Positions 3,876-64,000 of a stretch of DNA of 64,000 nucleotides are shown in pieces. The position numbers and the translations under genes were made by a program. How positions within the stretch are numbered: the first letter of the stretch is position 1; every line of letters starts with the position of its first letter. Below the pieces are notes generated by a model, which was given only the letters and a program-made list of their open reading frames with translations, did no database searches and was not told the DNA's origin. Source of the DNA: a virus (Duplodnaviria; Caudoviricetes); the IMG/VR virus record IMGVR_UViG_3300035510_000286, positions 64,001 through 128,000 of that record; one strand, 5' to 3'.

Positions 3876-5252
3876 ATGGATATTAACGAAATTACAAATC
3901 AGATAGAAGCAGTTATCTCCAATGTTGAGGATTTTGGGGAGCGGGAACCAGATTTTGGTAAAATTGTAAATTTATGGAAAATCCGCAAGGCCCGTTTCAT
4001 CGAACTCTTTGGCGGAGAACCCATCTATGAAATTCCTGACTCTATTACTATTGAATTAAATGAAGAACAAAAGACTCAAATGTTTAGTAAACTACTGAGT
4101 CAGATGTCTCACGAAGGCGCCGATGAAAGATTCATCGAGTTCCTTGAAAAGAATGGATCTAGCTTTTACGAAAATCGAGTCTCCTATCCCGCCGAAGGAA
4201 CCAATATGAAGGAAGGGGCTAAATTGCTAAAGTCCTTCAAATACGTTCTTCCTCCTGATTCTTTGCGGAAGTGTCAAGATATCGCATCGCGAGTAATCCA
4301 ACAGAACAAAGTAACAGGAAAACTTTGCTTCTCAGTACATCCACTAGATTATATTACTATTTCCCAGAATAATTGCGGATGGAGTAGTTGCCACTACATT
4401 GAGGGAGATTATCGTGCGGGTAATTTCTCCTATATGCTAGATTCTTCTACTGTTGTTGTATATCTTAAAACAGAAGAAGATACTCATCTTAAGTATTTTC
4501 CCGAAGAACTTGAGTGGAATAACAAAATTTGGCGTATGCTAATTCACATTACTAAATCTGGGAAAATAATCCATTACAATAAGCAGTATCCATTCTTTTC
4601 TTCTGTTTTAATGGATGAAGTTAGACGCAACTACCCTGGACCGCGGCAAGACGATCTTGAATGTACCGGCTTCAGCAAGATTGATAACGACTCTGGGACT
4701 CACTTTCCGCAAGTACCCGGATTTATTTTAAATGGTTTTATCACTTCTTATGACGATATTGTGGAAGATAAAAGCGATACTTTAGCTTACAATGACATCT
4801 TAGCTTGTAACAATTTTAATCCTTATCTTTCTCATGCAAGAAGTATTACTCTTTTAAACTACTCACGTGAGGACCGCAAAGCTACTAAAGAAAAATTGCA
4901 AGTAAAAGTAGGTTCTTTAGTACCTTGTCCCTGCTGTGATAAAACTCTCGATGATTCTGAACATTATATCTGTACTTCTTGCGCAGAAGCTGCTCAAAGA
5001 TTTGAACTTGGTCTTGACCTATGTGATAATTGTAAAGATGAATTTTATAAAGAAGAATTGATAGAATTTAAAGGAAAAAAGTATTGCGCCGAATGTTTCT
5101 TTGAAATGGAAGAACTCGATCGAGAAGAAAGAGGCGTACAACTTTGTTATTGGTGTGGAGAAGAGTACGATATTGAAGATATGAGGATGTTGGATGATGA
5201 ACCCCATTGTCCGCACTGCTATGAAGAAAGGATGGCGAAATTAAATGATTGA
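3876..5252 (+). CDS. hypothetical protein with C-terminal Zn-finger repeats
   Basis: 458 aa; SVHPLDYITIS...WSSCH motif and multiple CxxC pairs. Confidence 0.7.
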   Translation: MDINEITNQIEAVISNVEDFGEREPDFGKIVNLWKIRKARFIELFGGEPIYEIPDSITIELNEEQKTQMFSKLLSQMSHEGADERFIEFLEKNGSSFYENRVSYPAEGTNMKEGAKLLKSFKYVLPPDSLRKCQDIASRVIQQNKVTGKLCFSVHPLDYITISQNNCGWSSCHYIEGDYRAGNFSYMLDSSTVVVYLKTEEDTHLKYFPEELEWNNKIWRMLIHITKSGKIIHYNKQYPFFSSVLMDEVRRNYPGPRQDDLECTGFSKIDNDSGTHFPQVPGFILNGFITSYDDIVEDKSDTLAYNDILACNNFNPYLSHARSITLLNYSREDRKATKEKLQVKVGSLVPCPCCDKTLDDSEHYICTSCAEAAQRFELGLDLCDNCKDEFYKEELIEFKGKKYCAECFFEMEELDREERGVQLCYWCGEEYDIEDMRMLDDEPHCPHCYEERMAKLND

Positions 5253-5399
5253 TGTAATTATGGGCGTTGTATGGGCCTGTTTCGGTGGAGTAGATGTATA
5301 TCTCTCCCTGAATGGCCGACCCGACTGCGTGGTAGGAACAGTTCCTTGTTTCTTCCTGGCTATTCTGCATTTTATGAGTATTATCTAAGGAGGATATTT

Positions 5400-5705
5400 A
5401 TGGCACGTAGAGGCGATATTGCACGTGAAAAGGTTGTAAAGACTATTACAGAAGCTTTTGGGGACGCATATCTAGGAACAGAAGCGAAGAAGCTATACGT
5501 GGTAGCGGATGACGGAGGTGAGAAGATTCAGTTTTCTATTAGCATCACAATGCCGAAAGCTGAATTTGATCCTGCGCGAGCCGAAGCTCCAAAGCCCGCC
5601 AACCCTAACGATTGGACCACCGATGACCCCGCTCCGAAGAAAGTTGAACCTACTGCCGCGGACCAAGCGAAAGTTGATTCTCTTCTAAAGATGTTGGGCC
5701 TTTAA
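5400..5705 (+). CDS. hypothetical protein
   Basis: GGAGG RBS before ATG 5400 (MARRGDIAREKV). Confidence 0.7.
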   Translation: MARRGDIAREKVVKTITEAFGDAYLGTEAKKLYVVADDGGEKIQFSISITMPKAEFDPARAEAPKPANPNDWTTDDPAPKKVEPTAADQAKVDSLLKMLGL

Positions 5706-5805
5706 CTCTTCTTTTGATTTTAAAGCTCTGCGGATGCAGAGCTTTTTATTTTTTTAAAAAAATACATTATAATATTTATAGAAAGTAAGGAGAGGAGAAA
5801 AGTTC

Positions 5806-6042
5806 ATGGAGATTTCTAAAGAGGATGCAAAAATTTTGTTAAGCACTATCAAAGAACTTAAACAGCAGAAGCGGCAACTCTTAGATGCTCTTCTTATCGC
5901 TGGAAAATATGCACGAGAGAATCTTCCTGCTGCTTTTCCTTCTGATTCTTATTATGCCAATATCTACGTTAATGGCACAAACCGTGACCCCGAAGGTAGA
6001 GAATTCGCAAATTACTGGTTCCATTTAGCTAGAAAGGATTGA
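5806..6042 (+). CDS. hypothetical protein
   Basis: ORF with RBS downstream of a promoter motif. Confidence 0.65.
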   Translation: MEISKEDAKILLSTIKELKQQKRQLLDALLIAGKYARENLPAAFPSDSYYANIYVNGTNRDPEGREFANYWFHLARKD

Positions 6043-6046
6043 TATT

Positions 6047-6520
6047 ATGTCAACAGCACCTTCTTTTGCAAACTACAAGCGTCTTTCTGACCCATACGAG
6101 AAAAATGGAAAGATGTACATAGATGTCGAGCATCCCAATACCAAGAATCGACGCGCCGTCCGCTGGTATACTGAGGGTGAGGTAGCTAAGAATTACGGGA
6201 AGAAAATCAAGGAAGAAGAACCTAAAGATTTAAAGCGGGTGCGCGGATTTTCTAAAGGTCCAATTCTCGTTATTCGTGGGATTCGTACTAAAGCAGATGA
6301 AGAATGGTGTCAACTTTCTAATGCACGATATGCAGTAGGTATTGGATGGCATATTGTCTCAGAAGAAAGCCTCCCTGAGCAGTGGCCACCGCATTTTAAA
6401 TTCCTTCTGCTTGGATGGAATGAAGCTTCTTATGATGATAAGCATCTTAAATCTGCAAGCGACATTGCGAATATCCTTACAGCTAAAGAAAAGAAAGGGG
6501 AGTATATTAGCTTTGGGTGA
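6047..6520 (+). CDS. hypothetical protein
   Basis: 157 aa ORF in operon context. Confidence 0.7.
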   Translation: MSTAPSFANYKRLSDPYEKNGKMYIDVEHPNTKNRRAVRWYTEGEVAKNYGKKIKEEEPKDLKRVRGFSKGPILVIRGIRTKADEEWCQLSNARYAVGIGWHIVSEESLPEQWPPHFKFLLLGWNEASYDDKHLKSASDIANILTAKEKKGEYISFG

Positions 6521-6737
6521 TTTAACAGCAGTCTGTACTGTTCATTTCTTCGTAGATAGCGAAGAATTAAAAGACAATATTGTTATGACTAATGTAAGTT
6601 CTTTAGTAGAAGTTAGTGAAAGACTTTATGCTTACTACAAAGATGATTTATATAGCGTAACTATTTCGCTTATCGACTCTACTTTCCTTGAAATTACTGA
6701 TGAAGAAAAGGAGAAAATTCTAAATGGAAAAGATTGA
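6513..6737 (+). CDS. hypothetical protein
   Basis: TTG start after GGGGAG; translationally coupled to neighbours. Confidence 0.5.
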   Translation: MGDLTAVCTVHFFVDSEELKDNIVMTNVSSLVEVSERLYAYYKDDLYSVTISLIDSTFLEITDEEKEKILNGKD

Positions 6738-7155
6738 AATCTATAGAGCAGAAGATGGAACTGATTTCGAGGATGAAAACTCCTGTATCGCATATGAAGT
6801 AGGTCTTAAACTAAAGGGAGTACAGGGAGAACTTTTCCTCTACGATTGCGATGGAGAAATTATGCCTAATGAAGATGTCGAACTTGATGAAGTTGATTTT
6901 ATTCATTTTGTGACTCCAAGAGCCGTTGAAGTACTTACCCAGATTAATGACCTTCAGGACTATTATATGCCTGAAGAACTGAGATATGCGGAAGCTCCTG
7001 CGTATTTCTTCTATGACTGCGGAGAAGGCGATTGGAGGAATCTGAAAGAAGAATACGAAAGACTGGATAGCTATGCTGAGGTTATGGGCGCGAGAAGATC
7101 TTCCTTCATTTTTGACGTTGATAATGATGGAGAGTGGACTCAGTTACAAGATTGA
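6724..7155 (+). CDS. hypothetical acidic protein, paralog of the next gene
   Basis: N-terminus IYRAEDGTDFEDENSCIAYE. Confidence 0.7.
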   Translation: MEKIEIYRAEDGTDFEDENSCIAYEVGLKLKGVQGELFLYDCDGEIMPNEDVELDEVDFIHFVTPRAVEVLTQINDLQDYYMPEELRYAEAPAYFFYDCGEGDWRNLKEEYERLDSYAEVMGARRSSFIFDVDNDGEWTQLQD

Positions 7156-14539: not shown

Positions 14540-15724
14540 GTGGCAGAATTATCTAAAATAAAATTAGGTGGCACCACTTACACCATTAAAGATAAAGATG
14601 CGAGGGATCGTCTTGATGCCGTTGAGACGACCCTCGCATCGGGGCTTATCTTTAAGGGTACAGTCTCAAGTGCTGCCGGTATTACAGGATTAACAAATTA
14701 TAAAATTGGTTGGACTTACAAAGCCTCTGCCTCTTTTAGTATAACAAATATAGGAAGCATAGAATCAGGAGACATGATTATTTGTGTTTCTGAGTATAGT
14801 TCTTCCTATAAAGCAACAGACTGGACTGTGGTTCAGAATAATGTTGATACATTTACAGGCGCAAGTGCGAGTGCGGCAGGTACAAGGGGTTTAGTACCCG
14901 GGCCCTCCGCAGGCAGTCAAGCTAAGTTCTTGCGTGGAGATGCAACTTGGGCATCTATAGACTCAGTACCTAAATTAACTACTGCCCGCACAATAACTGT
15001 AGGTGGCGATGAATCAGGTTCTGCTTCTTTTGATGGCTCTTCTAATGTTACTATCAATCTAACTGATAATCGCTTTGTAATGGGCACTCAGACAGCTTCT
15101 ACTGCAGATTGGACTGGTAATTTACATGGCGTCAAAGCATTATATGATGGACTTTGTATTAATTATTGGCTTCCTTATGCTTCTGTGAGTAGTACTAATG
15201 TTACTTTAAATTTAACTCTCGACGATGGTACTACTACAGGCGCTATTGATTGTTATAGATGGGCAACTTCAAGATTAACTACGCATTATGGGGCCAATTA
15301 TCTTGTTACATTAACCTATCATTCTGGAGTAAATATTAATGGAACTACTTATACTGGTTGGTGGGCTACTGGTGATGCAAATTCCACTTATTCTAATGCT
15401 TCACTAGGATAGGGTTATGCAACGTGCTCAACAGCGGCAGCGACTGCGGCAAAGGCAGCTTCTTTAAGTAGTTATTCTTTAACTACTGGAGGTATTGTTG
15501 CTGTTAAATTCACTTATGATGTTCCTGCAAGTGCTACTTTGGATATAAATTCTAAAGGCGCAAAAAATATTTACTACAACGGAGCAGCCATTAAAGCTGG
15601 AGTAATAAATGCCGGAGATATAGCTTATTTTATTTATAGCTCTCAATATCATTTACTAGGGAAAAATACCACTTTAGATGACGTAGCTTCTGCTTTAGAC
15701 AGTGTTACATGGTTTGATTTTTGA
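14540..15724 (+). CDS. tail fibre protein (TAG=Gln at 15410)
   Basis: GLVPGP..G...KFLRGDATW and ARTI...G..SGSASFDGS fibre motifs; readthrough gives ASLG(Q)GYATCSTAAATAAK, in frame with 15539-15724. Confidence 0.8.
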
Positions 15725-16206: not shown

Positions 16207-16281
16207 GGAGGTGTAGTGTAATGGTAGCACAGAGGGCTCTAACCCCTCGGGTCTTGGTTCGATTCTGAAGCGCCTCTGCCA
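16207..16281 (+). tRNA. amber suppressor tRNA (anticodon CTA), probably Gln-charged
   Basis: GAGGG-CT CTA AC-CCCTC (anticodon 16239-16241); Gln-like loop; G73-CCA. Confidence 0.9.
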
Positions 16282-16330
16282 GACTAAAAGGGAGGGAAAC
16301 CTCCCTTTATTTTTTTTTATAGGAGAAATT

Positions 16331-17569
16331 ATGTATAAAGAACATTACCCGTTTTTTAGTAGCGTGTGTTTGAACCTCACTGACGCGTGCAACCTAGAAT
16401 GCAAGTATTGCTTTGTTAAGCAATGTAACCACTATATGACTTACGAAATTGCAGAACAAAGCGTTGATTTTTTAATGAATAATGTTAAACAAAAGGAAGA
16501 ATTAACTGGAATTAAGCAAGATCCTTCTATCACTTACTTTGGCGGTGAACCTACTATAATGTGGGATAGTATTATTGTGCCGCTAACTAAGCATATTAGA
16601 GAGAAGTATGGAGATACTATTACTCTTACAATGACTACTAATGGGACGCTACTGAATAAGGAAAGAATTGATTTTATGCGGAAGTATGATATCTATCCTC
16701 ATCTTTCTTTCGATGGTCCTAAAGAAGTTCAAGATAAAAATCGTCCAATGCGGAATGGGCAAAGTAGTTATGAGGCGGCGGCTTCCAATATTTCCTATTT
16801 ATTACAAAATTTTCCAAACACCGCTATGAGAGCAACCATTGACCAAGCTACAGTTGATGGCACTTTTAACTCGTATGTTTTCGCTATGGAGCACGGTTTC
16901 CGCAATTTCTTTACAATGCCTAATGGCAGAGAAACTTGGTCAGAAGAAAATATTCAAAAACTTGATGAAGAAGTAGAAAAGATTTTTGCGTTGATGTATC
17001 TACAGTTTTCTGAAGGTCATAAACCTTTTACTTCTTTTTCTCGTATTGATAAAACTTATGAAGATATACTGAATAGAGATTTACAGTTCTATCATAATAG
17101 ATTTAACAATGTTTCTATTCATCGTGAACCTTTTAGATGCGGCCTTGGTACTACTTCTGCTTCTATCTCTTATGATGGTAGAATTTATGCTTGCCAAGAA
17201 CAAGATTCCTATGGAAATAGTTTTTTCTTTATTGGTGATATTTGGAATGGCGTAGATAGAAAAAAGCATGAAGCTTTATTAGATGAATATACGAAAGAAG
17301 CAATAAATCAGTGTGAGAAGCCTGAACTCTGCAAAACTTGTCCTTTGCGGCAGGTGTGTCAGACTAATGGTTGTCCTTCTTCTAACTATGACACCTATGA
17401 AGATTTCTTTATTAATCCAGAAGTAGCTTGTAGATGGAATCAAATCTTATTTAAGCACGCTATCAACATGATGAGATGTCTGGTAGAAGAAAATAATTTA
17501 GCCTTTAAAGATTATTTAGATAATGAATGTCATTATAAAAATTATTATAGAAAGGAGGAAAAGCAATGA
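16331..17569 (+). CDS. radical SAM/SPASM domain protein (peptide-maturase-like)
   Basis: CNLECKYC (CxxxCxxC), YFGGEP, TTNGTLL, SFDG; SPASM C..G..YAC...CKTC.....C....C...C. Confidence 0.92.
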   Translation: MYKEHYPFFSSVCLNLTDACNLECKYCFVKQCNHYMTYEIAEQSVDFLMNNVKQKEELTGIKQDPSITYFGGEPTIMWDSIIVPLTKHIREKYGDTITLTMTTNGTLLNKERIDFMRKYDIYPHLSFDGPKEVQDKNRPMRNGQSSYEAAASNISYLLQNFPNTAMRATIDQATVDGTFNSYVFAMEHGFRNFFTMPNGRETWSEENIQKLDEEVEKIFALMYLQFSEGHKPFTSFSRIDKTYEDILNRDLQFYHNRFNNVSIHREPFRCGLGTTSASISYDGRIYACQEQDSYGNSFFFIGDIWNGVDRKKHEALLDEYTKEAINQCEKPELCKTCPLRQVCQTNGCPSSNYDTYEDFFINPEVACRWNQILFKHAINMMRCLVEENNLAFKDYLDNECHYKNYYRKEEKQ

Positions 17570-18186
17570 GCTGTGAAACTTGTGTTAGCTGCGAAGTTTG
17601 CGATGGATGCAATACTTGTAATAATAGTTGTAATAGCTGCAACAATGGTAATTGTACAGTTTGTACTGACGGAGAAACGTATTGCGATACCGAAGAGGTT
17701 TATAGCACTGATTGTTCTAATAAGTTTAAATGGAACGGTGGTGTCAATACAGGAGATGCAATAATTACACTTACCGACTGGAATAGACTTCCTGATTATG
17801 TTAAAGCTTTAAGAAGTAAAGGTAAAGGTGGCAAAGACACTAGTACAATTACAAAACAAACCGATAAAGAAGTTAAAGCATCTTGGTTTAATACTTATGC
17901 TAATTTAGTAGGAAGTAGTAAAACTGCAACCGCTGGAAAAACTCTTATATACGGTTCATATTTCCAAGATTTAGCTGATTGTGCTAATAAGTTAAAGTAT
18001 GAAAAGACTCAATGTGCTAGCTGTAATACGGGATGTAAAAGCTGCGATAGTAGCTGTGAAGGTAACTGCAATCAATGTAAATCAGGTAATACTGCAAGCA
18101 CCAAATGCAAAAGTGGAAATACCTGTACTACAGATTGCAGTGAGACGACTAGTGGATCAAGCCCTTGCAGCTTAAGTGAGAGATAA
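17566..18186 (+). CDS. Cys-rich protein (24 Cys, CxxC/CxxxC repeats at both ends); candidate radical SAM substrate
   Basis: ATGA overlap with the rSAM gene; GGAGG RBS. Confidence 0.8.
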   Translation: MSCETCVSCEVCDGCNTCNNSCNSCNNGNCTVCTDGETYCDTEEVYSTDCSNKFKWNGGVNTGDAIITLTDWNRLPDYVKALRSKGKGGKDTSTITKQTDKEVKASWFNTYANLVGSSKTATAGKTLIYGSYFQDLADCANKLKYEKTQCASCNTGCKSCDSSCEGNCNQCKSGNTASTKCKSGNTCTTDCSETTSGSSPCSLSER

Positions 18187-18716
18187 TGAAAGAATTAATT
18201 GAACAAGTAGAAAAATATCTCTTAAAACAAGAGAACACAATAGCTAAAGCTGTTCTTCGATATTTTAAAACAGAAGGAAAAGATGAAGAATTACTTGATG
18301 AATACTACGATTCTTTTGAAAAAGTATTAGCTATGTGTATAAAATATATTACTACAGAATACGAGATTGAAGTCCCTGGTGATATAGCTGTATTTTCAGT
18401 AACCTATGATGATATGGAAACCTTTGAATCTCGAGTGCGGGAGTGGCTGAACTGCGGCGACCGCAATCTAGCTCTATATCATTGTCTTTTGATTCTCGAT
18501 AATGAGTGTTATACTATTGTAAATAGAATTGCTTATAACTTATTTAAGGATATTCCTGATATGTATGGTGAAATTCTTCATGCCGAGGATTGTTGCGGTT
18601 ATTGTGCTGATACGTTTGATGGACCTCCAGTCCCTGTCTCTGAAATAAAAGAAATTCCTCCTTATCATCCTTCATGTCGATGTGTTTATACTTATTTTAG
18701 AAAAGAAATTACTTGA
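18186..18716 (+). CDS. protein with a Mu gpF/SPP1 gp7-like C-terminal motif
   Basis: CCGYC...PPYHPSCRC. Confidence 0.6.
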   Translation: MKELIEQVEKYLLKQENTIAKAVLRYFKTEGKDEELLDEYYDSFEKVLAMCIKYITTEYEIEVPGDIAVFSVTYDDMETFESRVREWLNCGDRNLALYHCLLILDNECYTIVNRIAYNLFKDIPDMYGEILHAEDCCGYCADTFDGPPVPVSEIKEIPPYHPSCRCVYTYFRKEIT

Positions 18717-18808: not shown

Positions 18809-20281
18809 ATGTTAAATGAATTAAAGGTTGAAGCATCTAAAACTTATACTGAAAATGGCGGCGTGAGTTATTCTACTACTGCAAATCGAGTGTTTGATCT
18901 CTTTAGCCTTGGTGGCGCATATAGAGAGCGTAGTAAAGAAGATACGATTGCACTTTTTGCTTCTGCTTATCGAGAGAATCCTACTTTTGCTTTGAAGTGC
19001 CTGTTTTACTTGCGTGATGTGCGCGGAGGCCAGGGCGAAAGAGCCTTTTTCCGAGTTTGTTTGAAGTGGTTGGCTAATTATGACCCTGATGCAGTTCTGC
19101 GGAATCTTGGATATATCCCTGAATTTGGTAGATGGGATGATTTATTCGAGTTGTTTGATACTCCGGTTGAAGCCGAGGTAATGCAGTTTATTGCAGAACA
19201 ACTTGCAATGGATATTAAGAACGCTCTTAAAGAAAATTCTATTAGCCTTCTTGCTAAATGGCTTCCCAGTGAGAATACTTCTAGTCAGGGAACTCGAAGA
19301 AAGGCTAAGAAGATTCAAGAATATCTTCATATGACTCCCAAGCTGTATCGTAAGACTCTGTCAGAATTGCGGAATTATTCTAACGTTCTTGAGCGTCTTA
19401 TGAGCGACAAGAGATGGGATGAGATTGATTTCTCGGCTGTTCCTTCTAAGGCTGGTTTGAAGTATTCTAAAGCTTTTTTAAAGAATAAGGAAACTTCTGA
19501 GCGATATCAGAAATTTATTCAGTCTAAGAATACTAAAGTCCATGCTGGGACTCTGTATCCTGCTGATGTAGTGCATAAGGTTATGGGTAAGAGCTATTAT
19601 GATATGCACTATACTGGCTTAGAAGATAGAGCAATATATAACAAGTATTGGGAAAATCTTACCGACTATTTTAAGGGCGCAAAATTCAATGGAATTGCTG
19701 TCGTTGATACTTCTGGTAGTATGTACGGACGCCCGATCGAAGTTGCAATCTCGTTAGGTTTGTATTGCGCTGGAAAATGTAATCCTGAGAGTCCTTTCTA
19801 TAACCATTATATTTCTTTTTCTAGTCGGCCTGAACTAGTAGAGATTACTGGGCAAGATTTCTGTAGCCAGGTAATTAACATCTATGATAATATGCTCTGC
19901 GATAACACTAATATTGAAGCTGTATTTAATCTACTGCTCAATACCGCTTTAAAGCACCAGCTCCCGCAGTCTGAGCTTCCTGAGAATATTATCATTATCT
20001 CTGATATGGAATTTGATAGTATGACGAACTATAGAAGCTTAGAGGGTCTTTACTCTGGTATGGAGACTATTAGAAACAAATGGGAAGAATACGGATACAA
20101 GATGCCTAATCTTGTATATTGGAATGTCAATGCTAGACATAACCTTATTCCCGAGGCTCTCAAGAACGGTGTTTCTTTTGTAAGCGGTTACTCCCCAGTT
20201 ATTTTGGATTCTATTCTTACTGGCAAGACTGGTAAAGAACTGATGTTTGAAACTTTAAAGAAGTATGATATGATTCGCTAA
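18809..20281 (+). CDS. DUF2828-type protein, Ro60/TROVE-like helical domain plus vWA domain
   Basis: TENG, FYLRDVRGGQGER, GRWDDL, LAKWLPSE, vWA MIDAS DTSGSM, IISDMEFD. Confidence 0.85.
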   Translation: MLNELKVEASKTYTENGGVSYSTTANRVFDLFSLGGAYRERSKEDTIALFASAYRENPTFALKCLFYLRDVRGGQGERAFFRVCLKWLANYDPDAVLRNLGYIPEFGRWDDLFELFDTPVEAEVMQFIAEQLAMDIKNALKENSISLLAKWLPSENTSSQGTRRKAKKIQEYLHMTPKLYRKTLSELRNYSNVLERLMSDKRWDEIDFSAVPSKAGLKYSKAFLKNKETSERYQKFIQSKNTKVHAGTLYPADVVHKVMGKSYYDMHYTGLEDRAIYNKYWENLTDYFKGAKFNGIAVVDTSGSMYGRPIEVAISLGLYCAGKCNPESPFYNHYISFSSRPELVEITGQDFCSQVINIYDNMLCDNTNIEAVFNLLLNTALKHQLPQSELPENIIIISDMEFDSMTNYRSLEGLYSGMETIRNKWEEYGYKMPNLVYWNVNARHNLIPEALKNGVSFVSGYSPVILDSILTGKTGKELMFETLKKYDMIR

Positions 20282-30720: not shown

Positions 30721-30945
30721 ATTAAGTATTTTATTTTAGGAATCCTCTTTGCCACTATAGGAACTTCTTTACTAGATTTATTAGTAACTATTATTACTTA
30801 TTTTACTGAATTAATTAAGGCTAAGTTTAGCATTAAAATTGGAGAACTTAATGCGGAAATAGCTAAGTTGAATGGTGAAGAAGAACCTACTAGAGTAATT
30901 GGTTTTACTCTAGGTGAAGAAGGAGATGAAGAAGAAGATGATTAA
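30721..30945 (+). CDS. small membrane protein, possible ATT start (not in ORF track)
   Basis: GGAGGA RBS then ATT AAG TAT...; 74 aa with TM segment and acidic tail; stop overlaps the PhoH start region. Confidence 0.45.
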   Translation: MKYFILGILFATIGTSLLDLLVTIITYFTELIKAKFSIKIGELNAEIAKLNGEEEPTRVIGFTLGEEGDEEEDD

Positions 30946-32164
30946 CTTTTATGATACATCTAGTTTGTTACTAAAAACTAGCTTTGACGATGAAAACAAG
31001 TTTTTAGTTTCTTCTATTACAATTAAAGAATTAGAAAATATAAAGACTTCTACTCATAAAAATGAAGAAATTAAGTATTCAGCAAGAAATTTATTAAAAT
31101 TTTTATATGAAAATACTGATAAGTATGACGTAATTTTACATAAAAGTGCTTATGAATTTCCGATTGTAGAAGCGGATTTCGAGTTGAATAATGATTCTAA
31201 AATCCTATCAGATGTTATTTATGCCAACAACAATTTGCATATAGACGATATAGACTTCGTTACAAATGATTTTTCTCTCGCTTTATTAGCAAATCAATTC
31301 TTGGGTGATGGCTGCATTAAAGCTATAGCTCCCGCCGAAGAGTATACAGGATATATTGAAGTAAGCGTGAGTGATAGCTCAGTAGCAGATATATATCAAG
31401 ATAAAAACCCTTATGGTTTGTTATGTGGAGAATACTTGATAGTACGAGAAGAAGATAAAGTAGCAGATGTCTTAGTATGGCAAGGCGACTCGTACAGACA
31501 CTTAAGTTACAACTCTTTTACTTCTGATTGGTTTGGTGAAGTTATTCCTTATAAAAATGATATTTATCAAAAACTATTATTTGATAGCTTGTGTAACAAT
31601 ACCATGACTATTATTAGAGGTAAAGCTGGAACAGGAAAGTCTTATACTGCAATGGCTTATCTCATGTATGCGCTAGAAAAAGGCATTATAGATAAAATAG
31701 TTATTCTATGTAACCCCGTTGCTACTAAAGACTCGGCCAGACTTGGCTTTTATCCTGGATCTAAAGAATCTAAACTTCTCGATTCATAGATTGGTAATTT
31801 CTTGATTGGTAAATTCGGCGGCTCTGAAGCAGTAGAGAGATTAATAGAAGAGGGCACTTTGATATTGATTCCTGCTTCTGATTGCAGAGGACTAGATATA
31901 GGTAGTAGGGCTGGCGTATATATCACAGAAGCGCAAAATACTACTATAGATTTAATGCAACTTATGCTTCAGCGGATTGGAGAGAATTGTATCTGTATCG
32001 TTGAAGGTGATGATAAAGCACAAGTTGATTTAAAGGTATATGAAAATAATAATAATGGTCTGCGGCGGGCCTCGGAAGTATTCCGCGGCGAACCTTACTA
32101 TGGAGAGGTAACTCTTCAAAATTGTTATAGGTCTAAAATAGCTGCTAGAGCAGAATTAATGTAA
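30938..32164 (+). CDS. phoH: PIN-PhoH family protein (TAG=Gln at 31787)
   Basis: PIN FYDTSSLL...DSKIL...FVTND; Walker A GKAGTGKS, LGFYPGS, RGLD, EAQN, GDDKAQVD; halves in frame across TAG. Confidence 0.88.
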
Positions 32165-39908: not shown

Positions 39909-40889
39909 ATGGATATTTTAGCTTGTATTCTTGCCTTTGCATTTTGTTTTTTAGCAGTTTATGCCTACAGCTTAAAGTAGGATGTTAAAAAAACTGTTAA
40001 ATTCAATGCAAAGTAGGCAGAAGAAAATAAACAATTAGAATAGACAGCAAATGACTTAAAAAATACAATAGAAAATTTAACTTTAGAAACTTCAAAAGTA
40101 AAAAGTGAATTAAAAGATAAGCAAGATTCTTTACTATATATTTCTGATTAGATTATACATTCTGAGAAGCAACAGAAGGATTTAGTAAATGACCAAGCTG
40201 AACGCCTAAGAATAGCTGGACAAGCAGAGAAGGAAAAACTACAAAGAGAATATGAAGATTACCGAGAAGAATTAAGGTCAAAACTAGAGAACTTCAAAGA
40301 TGAAATCTCGTTAAAACAAACTTCTATTTAGAGTGCTATAAAAGAAGAGGAATCTAAGTTAGCAGAATTGCGGGCAAAGTAGGATACGTATCTCTAGGAG
40401 CAACAGAGAAAAGAAGAAATGCTTCGTAAGAAAGATTATTATCGTTTATGTATCTCTGATGCGGAAATTGCGGATGTGCAAGCTTTGAGGAACTTTCAAT
40501 CTACCTTCTCGCGCAAAGAAGCTATAGATAAAATTTTGTGGGATATTTATTATAAACCCGCTTTTGACGTTCTTTCTTCACATTTGTTTGAAGGAACCGG
40601 TAAGGTTTGTGGAATTTATAAAATTACTTGCTTAGATATTGATAAAGCTTATATAGGTCAAAGCGTGGATATACGAGAACGTTGGCGGCAACATATCAAG
40701 TCTGCTTTATCTCATGAATCTACTTAGAATAAACTATATAAGGGCATGAAGGAATATGGCGTTCATAATTTTACTTTTGAAATATTAGAAGAAGTACCTA
40801 GAACGAAGTTGAATGAACGAGAAGTTTATTGGATTGATTTCTATAGAACTCAAGATTTTGGATTCAATGGAAATAAAGGTGGTAGTTAA
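39909..40889 (+). CDS. TM plus coiled-coil plus C-terminal GIY-YIG nuclease; many TAG codons
   Basis: One frame from ATG 39909 to TAA 40889, broken only by TAGs; CGIYKIT...YIGQS...LNEREVYWI. Confidence 0.75.
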
Positions 40890-49482: not shown

Positions 49483-49536
49483 TTTATTTAAGAGTTTTTT
49501 AAAATAAATTGTGGTGTTTTGGAAGGAGAGACAAGA

Positions 49537-51279
49537 TTGAAGTATTAGCTAATAAATCCAATAAATAAAGAATATACACCAATCGTTTAGGTATTAACAA
49601 ATCGAGGAATTGAATATGATGAAGTTTCTCATTATCTAAACACCACAGATGAAGATATTTATTCTTCTCTTCTGCTTGATAGAATTGATGAAGCTGCTAA
49701 AATGTTAGTAAAGCATTTAGCTGATGATAAACTGATTTATGTGATTGTTGACGCTGATTGTGATGGTTTCACTTCATCTGCTATCTTGCTAAATTATTTA
49801 CATGAGTGGATGCCAAGTATAGTTGAATCTAAGTTTTATTATGTATTTCATCCCGGCAAGCAACATGGTATTGATGTTTCTTAGATTAAAGAAGGAACTG
49901 GCCTAGTGATTGCCGCCGACTCTAGTAGTAATGAAGTTGAAATTCATAAGGAACTTTTTGAGCAAGGTATTGATGTACTTATACTGGATCACCACCACGC
50001 AGACAGTATTTCAGAATACGCTTGCGTAGTTAATAATCAACTTTGTGATTATCCTACTAAATCTCTTTCGGGCGCTGGAATTGTTTACAAATTCTGTCAA
50101 TATTTGGATACGCTCCGAGAAGAAAATAAAGCTGATTTACAGCTTGATTTAACTATGTTAGGCATCACCGCTGATATGATGTCGCTACGAGACATGGAAA
50201 CCCGCCAGATTATTTCAAAAGGAATCGCATAGATTCGTAATCCATTTCTGGCTGGTATGGTAGAGAAGAATGAATACTCAATAGGAAGTGCAGTTACTCC
50301 AATAGGAATCGCATTTTATGTGGCTCCTTACGTTAATGCAATTACGAGAGTGGGAACATTAGAAGAGAAAATAACTTTATTTGAATCTATGCTTGAATGG
50401 AAAGCATATGAGGAAATACCATCTACTAAACGTGGATGTAAAGGTTTGTTTGAATCTAGGGTTGAACAAGCTATTAGGACCTGCATTAACGTGAAAAATA
50501 GGCAGACAAGACTTAGAGATGATAGCTTAGAAGCAATAGAAAATAAGATTGAAGAAGAGAAGCTACTAGATAAAAAACTTCTTATTATTAAATTAGATAA
50601 TATTTCAGTTGATCGTTCTATTGCCGGATTAATAGCAAATTAGCTAATGTCTAAGTACCAAAGACCTACAGCTATTCTTAGTCCTTATGAATCAGAAGAA
50701 GGATTAAAGTGGGAAGGTTCTGCTAGAGGCTACGATAAATCTCAATTAAAAGATTTTAGAACCTTTTGTGAAGATTCCAATTTAGTCTATCTTGCGCAAG
50801 GACACGCAAATGCTTTTGGATTAGGTATCCTTGATTCTAATTTTGAAGCATTTATGGAATATGCTGAAAAGGAATTAGAAGATATAGAGTTTGAACCTTC
50901 ATATCGAGTTGACTATATTTTTTCTGCCAATGATTTTAATTCCGCTATGATTCTTGATATTGCAAGTTTAAAACCTTGGTGGGGCCAAGATATTGACGAA
51001 GCCTATGTAGCAATAGAAGGAATTAAAGTGACAAGAGATAATTTATATCTGATGTCGCGTGATAAAAATCCCACTTTAAAGATAAATTTACCGAATGGAG
51101 TTAGCTGCATTAAATTTAAGTCAAGTGAGGAAGAGTTTAATAAACTATTCTCTGAATCCGGTTGTGTTGTTATCAATGTCGTAGGTAAATGTGAAGCAAA
51201 TGTATGGAATGACATGGTAACACCCTAGATTATCATTGAGAATTATGATATTATGGAAACTCAGCAATTTTATTTTTAA
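49537..51279 (+). CDS. recJ: RecJ-like DHH exonuclease with six TAG codons
   Basis: DADCDG, DHH, SGAG, ADMM, GSARG, GHANAFG, TP(Q)III; four track ORFs share one frame. Confidence 0.9.
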
Positions 51280-62300: not shown

Positions 62301-63651
62301 TCAAAGGCAAGACCGTGAAAGAAAAGTGTCTAAAAAACCAAAAAATATACGAGTAATAAAACTTTCTACTCAAGAAAGTAAAGATTTTTCTTCTTACGCC
62401 GAAGCAGAAAGATACTTTAATATAAAACCTCGCAGTTTTAGCTCAAAAGCGTATAAAAGAGGAAATGAATTTACTTATAAAGATGAATATAAAATTATTA
62501 AAATATATTAAAAACCTGTATCGACTATCCCTGATGAATGTATGGGAGTAGGGCTGGAGATAAGCACCAGCGATGTTTTAGGAAACGAAGCATCTGAAAA
62601 CCGAAGCGGAAGACTACTTAGTCACAAGTAGAAGATATAGTCAGTACTAATGGTAACATTAGATAAAATGTGTAGAACAGCTAACGGCTACGACATCAAT
62701 GGGTTCGGCCAGCTAAAAGATGGCCGTGGTAATATTTGCCCCGTAACTATTATTATGCCCACTTTAGCTATGGAAGCAAAAGAAGAATATGATGGAACCA
62801 CTGAGGACGCTCCAGATAAGATAAGCTTATTTATGAATCTTCTTGATGAAAAAATCCATGAAGCTAAAGATATGCTCATTGAGCGATTTGAATATATTTG
62901 CTCTCAATCTCCAGCCAGCGCCAAGTTTATGTATAGAAATCATGTTATGGCAGGGTATAATCCAGAAGAAGGCATTAGAAGCGCGTTAAAACATGGGACT
63001 CTGGCTATTGGCCAAATTGGATTAGCTGAAACACTTCAAATTTTAATCGGTTGTGACCAAACAACAGATAAAGGAATGGAATTAGCCAAACGGATTGAAC
63101 AATTATTTAAAGATAGGTGCGCGGAATTTAAGAAAAATTATAAACTTAATTTTGGTGTATATTTTACTCCGGCAGAAAATTTAGCTTATACTTCTATGAA
63201 AAAGTTCCAGGAAAAATATGGTAAAATTCCTAATGTAAGTGAAAATGATTATTTCACAAATTCTATTCATACGCCGGTATGGAAACAAGTTTCTGTATTT
63301 GAAAAAATTGATATTGAATCTCAGCTTACTGGATATTCTTCGGCTGGATGTATTACTTATGTAGAATTAGATTCTAGTGCAAAGCATAACCCAGAAGCTT
63401 TAGAGATTATTGTAAATTATGCAATGGATCACGATATACCTTATTTCGCGATCAATGTCCCCAATGATACTTGCTTAGATTGCGGATACACCGATGAAAT
63501 GGATGATTCTTGTCCTATGTGCGGCGGCCAGAATATTCAGCGCCTACGTAGAGTTACTGGATATTTAACAGGTGATTATAAGAGTGCTTTTAACCTCGGC
63601 AAGCAGCAGGAAACTGAAATGAGAACTAAACACGTAGGAGTGAGAGAATGA
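59386..63651 (+). CDS. nrdD: anaerobic ribonucleoside-triphosphate reductase, join(59386..61545,62671..63651), containing an intein
   Basis: ATP cone, IYIHDLD, splicing gives STMG-CRT, GRGN, TPAE, YFTNS, RRVTGYL. Confidence 0.94.
59902..60813 (+). mobile_element. 304-aa intein with a LAGLIDADG domain, in NrdD
   Basis: GMHN|CCARET...TANHRW...LGFVLGDG...DGLYCADG...VWCLQVENTHSFVLPNGITTGN|CLSVP. Confidence 0.92.
61546..62670 (+). mobile_element. group I intron in nrdD with a GIY-YIG ORF
   Basis: P1 AUGGGU/GCUCAU; GCTAACGGT, GACCGTGG, GTATCGACTA, AAGATATAGTC; terminal G. Confidence 0.9.
61732..62511 (+). CDS. intron-encoded GIY-YIG endonuclease with TAG codons
   Basis: MFIYKITN...VYIG(TAG)TI; AEQYWI; GYNET. 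Confidence 0.85.
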
Positions 63652-64000
63652 GATATGCAGGGATTATACGAAATGACATAGCCTCAGCCCCAGGTATATG
63701 TTTAACTTATTTCGCTCAAGGATGTAAATCTAAGTGTAAAGGATGCCACAATCCAGAAACTTGGTACTTCAACGAAGGTAAGGAATTTACTCAAGAGACA
63801 CTTAATTCTATTATCTCTGGGCTTACTGCTAATGGTGTATCTCGTTCATTAGCAATTCAAGGCGGGGAACCGCTTTGTGAAGAAAATCAATTCCTTACAA
63901 ACCTCATTATAACAGAAGTAAGAAAAGTGTATCCAGATATAAAAATATATTTATGGACTGGATATTTATATGAAGATTTATTAAATAATTTAACCACGCA
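63648..64000 (+). CDS. nrdG: anaerobic RNR activating protein, partial
   Basis: QGCKSKCKGCHNPETW, GGEPL, IWTGY; ATGA overlap with nrdD. Confidence 0.92.
   Translation, partial: MRYAGIIRNDIASAPGICLTYFAQGCKSKCKGCHNPETWYFNEGKEFTQETLNSIISGLTANGVSRSLAIQGGEPLCEENQFLTNLIITEVRKVYPDIKIYLWTGYLYEDLLNNLTT

Follow-up and report, generated by a model that had tools for sequence, protein, structure and literature searches.

Here we describe a gene pair encoding a radical S-adenosylmethionine (SAM) enzyme of the SPASM type and a cysteine-rich protein. It lies in a 64,000-nucleotide stretch of the DNA of a large gut phage (the window) comprising bases 64001-128000 of the 136-kb IMG/VR record IMGVR_UViG_3300035510_000286, for which completeness is estimated at 79%. 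Comparison of homologous loci identifies the pair as a conserved two-gene module of phages infecting anaerobic Firmicutes. That the second protein is the substrate of the first is strongly suggested, and homology and motif composition point with moderate confidence to thioether chemistry. On balance, we lean towards a reading in which the enzyme places many thioether staples on the leaderless, full-size protein encoded downstream of it, which would be made late in infection.

To our knowledge, radical SAM thioether synthases have been described almost solely as producing small secreted peptides under the guidance of a leader and a RiPP recognition element (RRE; RiPP, a peptide synthesized by the ribosome and modified after translation). 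A full-text literature search found no description of a phage SPASM enzyme paired with a Cys-rich protein, and enzymatic maturation of virion proteins of the proposed thioether type was found in no paper. What would be new, we infer, is ranthipeptide-type maturation applied to leaderless, double-tailed, full-size phage proteins.

Linkage of the enzyme and the Cys-rich gene

Eighty IMG/VR loci found with the enzyme alignment were scored against the clade profile and made non-redundant. Wherever the enzyme scored at least 238 bits against this profile, a Cys-rich open reading frame (ORF) lay immediately downstream (40 of 40 non-redundant loci). Twenty-three of these ORFs match the profile of a 200-amino-acid family that includes the window protein (3 weakly, on longer proteins), and 17 encode longer Cys-repeat proteins. 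Among 36 non-redundant loci with distant radical SAM genes (<175 bits), 26 had no downstream Cys-rich ORF, 5 stopped at a contig edge and 5 carried a Cys-rich ORF (two of them marginal family matches); as background, ~5% of six-frame ORFs are equally Cys-rich. The reverse also held: 4 of 4 distant family members picked by sequence alone, one of them on a contig with TGA read as Trp, had the enzyme directly upstream. A first-pass annotation of the locus, made from the DNA letters alone, had proposed that the enzyme modifies its neighbour and held that the idea would fall if the Cys-rich gene were not conserved next to enzyme homologues; conservation across phages holds in both directions.

The enzyme has many homologues at 43-63% identity, often on 100-200-kb TAG-recoded contigs. 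At loci L006, L008 and L010 (our numbering throughout), the enzyme gene overlaps the gene that follows it, which belongs to the family. GTDB genomes contain the family at L099 and L100 and the longer class in Lawsonibacter faecis NSJ-52 and Ezakiella peruensis M6.X2 (L102 and L103), cultured species that carry it in a prophage; the hosts named for module phages belong to Clostridia and Tissierellia.

Phage phAss-1 (OQ749652.1) encodes a 174-residue family member right after its enzyme gene, unannotated and with three in-frame TAG codons (L093 5147-5671, reverse strand, about 67828-68352), in the gap that separates its annotated radical SAM gene from a GyrB-like one. Just upstream is another radical SAM gene, which contains 10 TAG codons, and the phAss-1 paper makes no mention of radical SAM. 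On a 1530-bp contig of Logan DRR595514 (L094), a family gene and the enzyme gene before it can be translated only if TGA is read as Trp, which places the module in a phage or host with another kind of stop-codon recoding as well.

A quick maximum-likelihood tree placed all Cys-linked enzymes in one clade (Shimodaira-Hasegawa-like approximate likelihood ratio test, SH-aLRT, 98). The enzymes with long substrates form one subclade (SH-aLRT 93), and the window enzyme falls in a 17-row clade (SH-aLRT 96) in which a family gene follows every enzyme.

Acid and amide residues follow the repeat cysteines

Across the 200-amino-acid family, the residue directly after Cys was Asp, Asn, Glu or Gln in 75% of 502 CxxC units and 84% of 251 CxxxC units, against 19-23% at the other positions and an overall background of 29% (binomial p 1e-98). 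The same residues serve as acceptors for PapB and NxxcB, the nearest enzymes that have been characterised. Namely, PapB joins Cys to Asp (at C-beta) or Glu, whether adjacent or spaced by up to six residues (PMC10739248), and NxxcB forms a beta-thioether from Cys to the C-beta of Asn and accepts Gln and Asp (PMC9389541).

The longer proteins show the same preference, with D/N/E/Q after Cys in 63-83% of units over all spacings, mostly Glu or Gln. An N-terminal Cys-repeat tract is present in all of them, and its repeats are truly CxxxC. The rest of the protein varies: members of 500-570 residues match Hoc-like head decoration proteins (phrog_10993, 1e-85 to 1e-101) and carry Ig domains, and other forms are 750-800 residues with an amidase-like piece, 243 residues, or an ORF of at least 1371 residues running off the contig end. 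N-terminal Cys-[E/Q]-x-x repeats of this class were seen at L031, L034, L042, L047 and L053 (about 5040-6780), at L030, L039 and L045, and at L025-L027 and L035. Many of these proteins begin with short conserved leader-like motifs (M..ELI.IP.FL, or MALKEDDIKDLG); the 200-amino-acid family is leaderless.

The substrates of the two enzyme subclades have nothing in common except Cys repeats. Since the repeat alone is common to the neighbours of both subclades, this is the strongest argument that the repeats are what the enzyme targets.

A thioether-synthase-like enzyme without an RRE

The first gene product carries the cluster-binding motif of radical SAM enzymes and scores 56 bits against Pfam Radical_SAM (PF04055; cut-off 29.5), which places it in that superfamily. 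Assignment to the SPASM subfamily is based on its distal cysteines: C270, C288, C334, C337, C343, C348 and C367 are invariant in 16 homologues and C328 nearly so, with a spacing (C270 with G-x4-C288, C334-x2-C337-x5-C343-x4-C348, C367) that aligns to the SPASM region of CteB. The Pfam SPASM model (PF13186) scored 18.7 bits, just under its cut-off of 21.5.

Models of RRE-bearing maturases align only from model position 78-97 onward, to query residue 10, and residue 97 of CteB (PDB 5WGG) likewise aligns to query residue 10; the start codon is fixed by an AGGAG ribosome-binding site and an upstream hairpin. Because these models and CteB join only at residue 10, the enzyme has no N-terminal RRE. 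The first-pass annotation had the radical SAM core starting at about residue 13, leaving no room for such a domain, and had taken the enzyme for a SPASM maturase of the thioether-forming kind; the position of C20/C24/C27 and the model alignments agree with the former, and the ranking of known maturases with the latter. The top curated model is the PapB-family ranthipeptide maturase NF047865 (1.3e-55, 189 bits against a cut-off of 340), followed by nif11-type maturases, SCIFF maturases, QhpD and CcpM, none of which reaches its cut-off, and the closest solved structure is CteB (E 3.8e-23, query residues 10-369). The enzyme is thus best classed, by these alignments, as a thioether-synthase-like SPASM enzyme that lacks a leader-recognition domain and belongs to no named family.

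A 98%-identical enzyme in IMGVR_UViG_3300035497_000258 (L004 6079-6489) contains a 137-residue mini-intein (CAPAGTK...FAVHN) exactly at the third Cys of CX3CX2C. The same mini-intein occurs in 3300035498_000413; Pfam Hom_end_hint matches at 34 bits, over its cut-off, and the window copy is intein-free. We count an intein at a cluster-binding Cys of so close a relative as a possible sign of the enzyme's importance. Elsewhere in the window, a second, weak Radical_SAM match (63711-63920; 25 bits, below the cut-off) lies in an ORF at 63648-63998 that leaves the window.

A conserved family with two Cys-rich tails

The 206-residue protein contains 24 Cys: residues 3-50 account for 12, and another 12 lie at residues 139-201, of which one is at 139 and eleven are at 150-201. 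Its full size, its lack of a leader (the first Cys is residue 3) and its Cys counts had all been noted in the first pass and are as described there.

No Pfam, NCBIfam or PHROG family matched this protein. A word-based protein search returned only the two close clusters of near-identical sequences. Neither blastn with the locus nor tblastn with the Cys-rich protein found anything in the phage GenBank collection, and a locus search with the Cys-protein alignment, confirmed by tblastn to the first sequence, yielded two close relatives only. An exhaustive HMMER scan recovered 48 representatives at E <1e-3, mostly of 170-260 residues and aligning end to end. The resulting set of ~50 representatives (172-326 residues, first Cys at median residue 5.5) identifies, by alignment, a real conserved family that has no Pfam or NCBIfam model.

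Its members share a plan. A variable number of CxxC/CxxxC units runs from the very N-terminus to a conserved C...Q..C element, beyond which the middle of the protein shows the motifs WN..(I).Y(I)N (in the window, WNRLPDYVK), (T)A..FN and IYGSYF..L...AN. The C-terminal tail begins with the family's most conserved, near-invariant motif, QC..CN..C..CD.C..C..C, and continues into a variable Cys-rich C-terminus. With the 50-sequence alignment, AlphaFold2 (AF2) predicted a small helical domain at residues ~41-153 (predicted local distance difference test, pLDDT, 74-95); residues 1-37 and 154-198 fell below 50, with no ordered or zinc-finger-like tail structure modelled. The single-sequence prediction was uninformative (pLDDT 34). 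Searches with the alignment-based model gave no convincing fold match: the best Foldseek hits had E 4.4 in PDB and E 0.32 in BFVD, and a wide VIA-align search peaked at Z 4.8 with a BARA domain. For the predicted domain, this outcome indicates neither a new fold nor a known one.

Compared with IMGVR_UViG_3300035497_000258, the Cys-rich gene is 76% identical and the flanking genes are 98-99% identical. Its dS is 1.0 (flanks 0.16-0.24) and its dN/dS 0.16, values that mark purifying selection and an allele exchanged by recombination. Positive selection was rejected as the cause of the divergence, as dS is also ~5x higher and dN/dS stands at 0.16. One-to-one pairing of N-tail and C-tail cysteines, as disulfides or a zipper, was likewise unsupported: the two counts correlate with a Spearman coefficient of 0.50, and total Cys is even in only 40% of members.

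Relation to known maturases

Among characterised systems, PapB and its substrate PapA (freyrasin) resemble the module most directly. PapB is the best curated model for the window enzyme and for every phage-clade enzyme, the NF047865 model starts at the radical SAM core as the window enzyme does, and PapA also has repeated Cys/acidic-residue units. PapA, however, is short, with a leader and six CXXXD units, whereas here the protein is leaderless, ~200 residues long and phage-borne, with a folded domain and two tails; the candidate acceptor comes directly after Cys, and Asn and Gln occur as often as Asp and Glu.

CteB and SCIFF (thermocellin), a thioether-forming maturase and its substrate from anaerobic Clostridia, resemble the pair in combining a SPASM enzyme with two auxiliary clusters and a Cys-rich protein. 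They differ in that CteB has an N-terminal RRE of ~96 residues, missing in the window enzyme, and that SCIFF is a ~45-residue peptide with six Cys, linked from Cys to the C-gamma of Thr; against the SCIFF maturase model TIGR03974, the RRE-less window enzyme scored 128.8 bits with a cut-off of 425. NxxcB and NxxcA, a streptococcal RaS-RiPP system likened here by description and not by sequence, place an Asn a short fixed distance upstream of Cys, and the window tails are full of N-x-C and D-x-C; NxxcA differs in being short and leader-bearing, with a single motif.

A precedent for modification of a protein subunit, as opposed to an exported peptide, is QhpD, a SPASM enzyme that puts several Cys-to-Asp/Glu thioethers in QhpC. 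QhpC, the gamma subunit of quinohemoprotein amine dehydrogenase, bears three such links, loses its leader by cleavage and belongs to a periplasmic enzyme. The QhpD model matches the window enzyme at 1.1e-34, but with 119.9 bits against a cut-off of 453 and an alignment beginning at model position 93, the N-terminal domain of QhpD being absent here; the window protein would offer up to ~20 candidate sites.

The CXXX-repeat systems (TIGR04115; TIGR04114/TIGR04117, PF27846), defined bioinformatically, also set an RRE-less radical SAM/SPASM enzyme beside a tandem-Cys-repeat protein. An Atlas look-alike cluster of viral 308-residue proteins has PF27846 in 52% of its members, and the long substrates of the sister clade carry true CxxxC repeats. 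The window enzyme scored 87.8 bits against a cut-off of 350, none of the target models matches the window protein, and with TIGR04117 just 1 of 50 family members gets as far as E 0.05. Here, unlike in those systems, period three (CxxC) is dominant, repeats stand at both ends and a conserved folded domain lies between them.

A proposed model for stapling of a whole protein

If the enzyme does act on the tails, a docking handle other than a leader would be needed, and the folded middle domain or the invariant QC..CN..C..CD.C motif may serve, because the enzyme has no RRE and the substrate no leader. Each Cys thiolate would then be presented to an auxiliary Fe-S cluster, the 5'-deoxyadenosyl radical would take a side-chain hydrogen from the residue after Cys (C-beta of Asp or Asn, C-gamma of Glu or Gln), and a thioether from the Cys sulfur to that carbon would form, over up to ~20 repeats. 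Both floppy tails would thereby become compact, redox-insensitive and protease-resistant knots, with thioethers standing in for disulfides, which an anaerobic, reducing host and gut would not allow to form or persist.

A more far-reaching version is possible but doubtful. It holds that the RRE-less enzyme installs a dozen or more staples on a folded, leaderless, full-length phage protein, that the globular domain replaces the leader-RRE handshake, and that what results is a virion or surface component proof against redox change and proteases. The same strategy would then be common to at least three unrelated substrate architectures: the 200-amino-acid double-tailed family, Hoc-like Ig decoration proteins and amidase-like proteins.

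Several observations weigh against thioether stapling late in infection. The enzyme falls below the curated cut-off of every named maturase family, which makes the reaction type an extrapolation, and PapB and NxxcB have been described on leader-bearing precursors, a leader being absent here. The tails, rich in CxxC and poor in His, might do no more than bind Zn, Cu or Fe-S. The linkage counts overstate independence, because many loci come from related phages with shared gene order, and the 40 loci are not 40 independent events. The window's three genes contain no TAG codon, so late timing is indirect for this phage, and in large relatives the pair sits mostly beside genes of nucleic-acid metabolism (TROVE/phrog_850, GyrB-like, DNA ligase, nucleotidyltransferase) and not structural ones. 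Finally, a strong terminator-like hairpin ends 22 nt short of the enzyme start codon, and the interval contains no promoter that could be recognised; an operon would need read-through past the hairpin or an unrecognised promoter.

Alternative readings

The alternative that survives best, and that we nonetheless consider unlikely, is that the Cys tails bind metal without covalent crosslinks, in the manner of metallothionein, zinc or Fe-S proteins, the enzyme's true substrate being elsewhere. Such a protein could sequester metal, or deliver Fe-S clusters or electrons to the radical SAM enzyme or receive them from it. The tails are ~25% Cys, with CxxC/CxxxC spacing and Asp, Asn, Ser and Gly between, like metal-thiolate proteins; the enzyme needs three Fe-S clusters, and the moderate correlation of N-tail and C-tail Cys counts would fit as well. 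However, none of 50 family members matched a metallothionein, ferredoxin or zinc-finger model at E<=1, and AF2 models neither ordered nor knuckle-like structure in the tails. The strict D/N/E/Q after Cys is no known feature of metal sites but fits thioether acceptors, and the enzyme has no other conserved neighbour that might be its substrate, the repeat being all that the neighbours of its two subclades share.

We think it rather improbable that the enzyme modifies the tails by another chemistry, such as sactionine (alpha-carbon) links, formylglycine formation as by the anaerobic sulfatase-maturating enzyme (anSME), epimerisation or carbon-carbon links. SPASM enzymes of similar sequence catalyse all these reactions; anSME, cyclophane-forming and sactipeptide models match the window enzyme at 1e-15 to 1e-28, and with no curated cut-off reached it is in no family. 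Yet PapB and CteB, which rank first among the models and the solved structures, form beta/gamma-thioethers, aromatic residues for cyclophanes are scarce in the tails, and the conserved acid or amide beside each Cys is best explained as an acceptor. No C/S-x-P/A-x-R sulfatase motif was seen in the repeats when the alignment was inspected by eye, without a systematic search.

Least credible, and in our judgement highly unlikely, is an oversized RiPP precursor whose middle domain is an internal leader and whose crosslinked tail or tails are cleaved off as small stable peptides, which would target the host or rival bacteria as bacteriocin-like or signalling agents, in the way that SCIFF-derived ranthipeptides act in clostridia. 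The tails have the size of RiPP cores (40-70 residues), the pair moves as a cassette with the allele swap described above, a pattern common in conflict genes, and ranthipeptides act in clostridial quorum sensing (reference 93, as cited in a passage of PMC9389541); but no gene for a protease, a transporter or immunity is a conserved neighbour of the pair in the loci examined, the alignment shows no conspicuous conserved cleavage motif at the domain-tail borders, and the sister-clade repeats are fused to Ig-domain and amidase-like proteins of 500-800 residues, not to peptide precursors. A RiPP precursor is, moreover, short, with a removable leader or follower and a core, whereas family members have 172-326 residues and a folded central domain. 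We retain thioether stapling of the whole protein as the favoured reading.

Timing and the virion question

In recoded relatives, the enzyme gene has 4-9 in-frame TAG codons and the Cys-rich gene 2-7, and the adjacent TROVE and GyrB genes have 0. A passage of PMC10607447 reports recoded stops as marks of late genes. Late production of the Cys-tailed protein is thus weakly suggested. We hold only weakly, and as a minority view, that it is an exposed virion or accessory protein. This reading is based on the Hoc-like proteins of the sister class, on in-frame TAG codons in relatives and on the local coupling to a MuF-like gene. The window protein matched no PHROG family and no fold, and fibre-like genes lie upstream of the enzyme, across a tRNA block.

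A TROVE/DUF2828-DUF7788 gene (Ro-like, with a vWA domain; phrog_850) is found at 18809-20281 of the window and, in many large relatives (L006, L008, L015, L020, L041, L098), no more than a few kb from the pair; this recurring neighbour may reflect a functional link or mere shared gene order. Upstream of the pair in L008 (377-4437) is a gene cluster, every gene of which has in-frame TAG, with a second radical-SAM-like gene (456 residues), a 448-residue CxxxCxxC protein, a 113-residue gene product and an aldo-keto reductase fused to ferredoxin-like domains. In two relatives (L010 7264-8178; L017 5933-8266), genes for S-layer homology (SLH)-domain proteins directly follow the module, which fits hosts with S-layers or secondary cell-wall polymers (Firmicutes).

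Layout of the locus

The phage is TAG-recoded, with TAG read as Gln, because many broken frames fuse under that reading, among them 39909-40889 (8 TAG), 49519-51279 (6), 14540-15724 (1) and 30899-32164 (2). The window has 12 tRNAs, including a suppressor tRNA with a CUA anticodon at 16207-16281, which ends 50 nt upstream of the enzyme gene.

The enzyme gene and the Cys-rich gene overlap by 4 nt (ATGA), with a strong AAGGAGG site 8 nt upstream, and the Cys-rich gene overlaps a third gene by 1 nt (TAATG). No terminator-like site occurs between the three genes (16331-18716), and features of the locus are collected in Table 1. The third protein ends in PPYHPSCRCVY and is probably a short MuF-like protein, resembling MuF / SPP1 gp7 (PF04233): phrog_4728 matches residues 118-174 at E 5e-4, and its Atlas look-alike cluster (score 0.95) has PF04233 in 60% of members. 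Pfam gave no match to it even at E<=1.

The first-pass annotation had read the locus as three translationally coupled genes, the third with a head-morphogenesis-type HPxCRC motif. Both overlaps, the common + strand and the motif itself (PPYHPSCRC) bear this out; the family likeness is weakly indicated. The three genes do not, however, form a conserved unit. We rejected the third gene as part of the module, as its homologues are confined to close relatives and unrelated genes take its place at other loci.

Table 1 Features of the enzyme-Cys-repeat locus, in window coordinates
Feature	Position	Strand	Basis
Terminator-like hairpin and T-run	16287..16308	+	Directly after tRNA(CUA), 22 nt before the enzyme start codon
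Radical SAM/SPASM enzyme, 412 amino acids, without N-terminal RRE	16331..17569	+	ORF, Pfam and NCBIfam models, CteB alignment
CX3CX2C motif (C20/C24/C27) for the SAM-binding [4Fe-4S] cluster	16388..16411	+	Sequence
SPASM region, with ligands expected for two auxiliary Fe-S clusters	17138..17431	+	16-homologue alignment, CteB alignment
Double-ended Cys-rich protein, 206 amino acids, proposed substrate	17566..18186	+	ORF, family alignment
Cys-rich N-terminal tail (residues 1-50), 12 Cys, most of them in C-[D/N/E]-x-C units	17566..17715	+	
Conserved, mainly helical middle domain (predicted), ~residues 41-153	17686..18024	+	Alignment, AF2
C-terminal Cys tail, residues 150-206, 11 Cys	18013..18183	+	Alignment
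176-amino-acid protein ending in a PPYHPSCRC motif, probably short MuF-like	18186..18716	+	ORF, phrog_4728, Atlas cluster

Discussion

The pair recurs in uncultured, stop-codon-recoded gut phages and in Clostridia prophages, where it is currently annotated as hypothetical or overlooked entirely, as in phAss-1. If thioether stapling is the correct reading, this recurring pair would gain a functional label, and radical SAM thioether chemistry would reach whole proteins without leader or RRE, at very high crosslink density. It would imply a new mode of recognition for RiPP-type enzymes, of interest for peptide and protein stapling, and would place this chemistry inside phage late-gene programmes. 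For phages of strict anaerobes, whose hosts let radical SAM enzymes work and disulfides fail, such redox-independent crosslinks would explain how exposed proteins are stabilised without disulfides.

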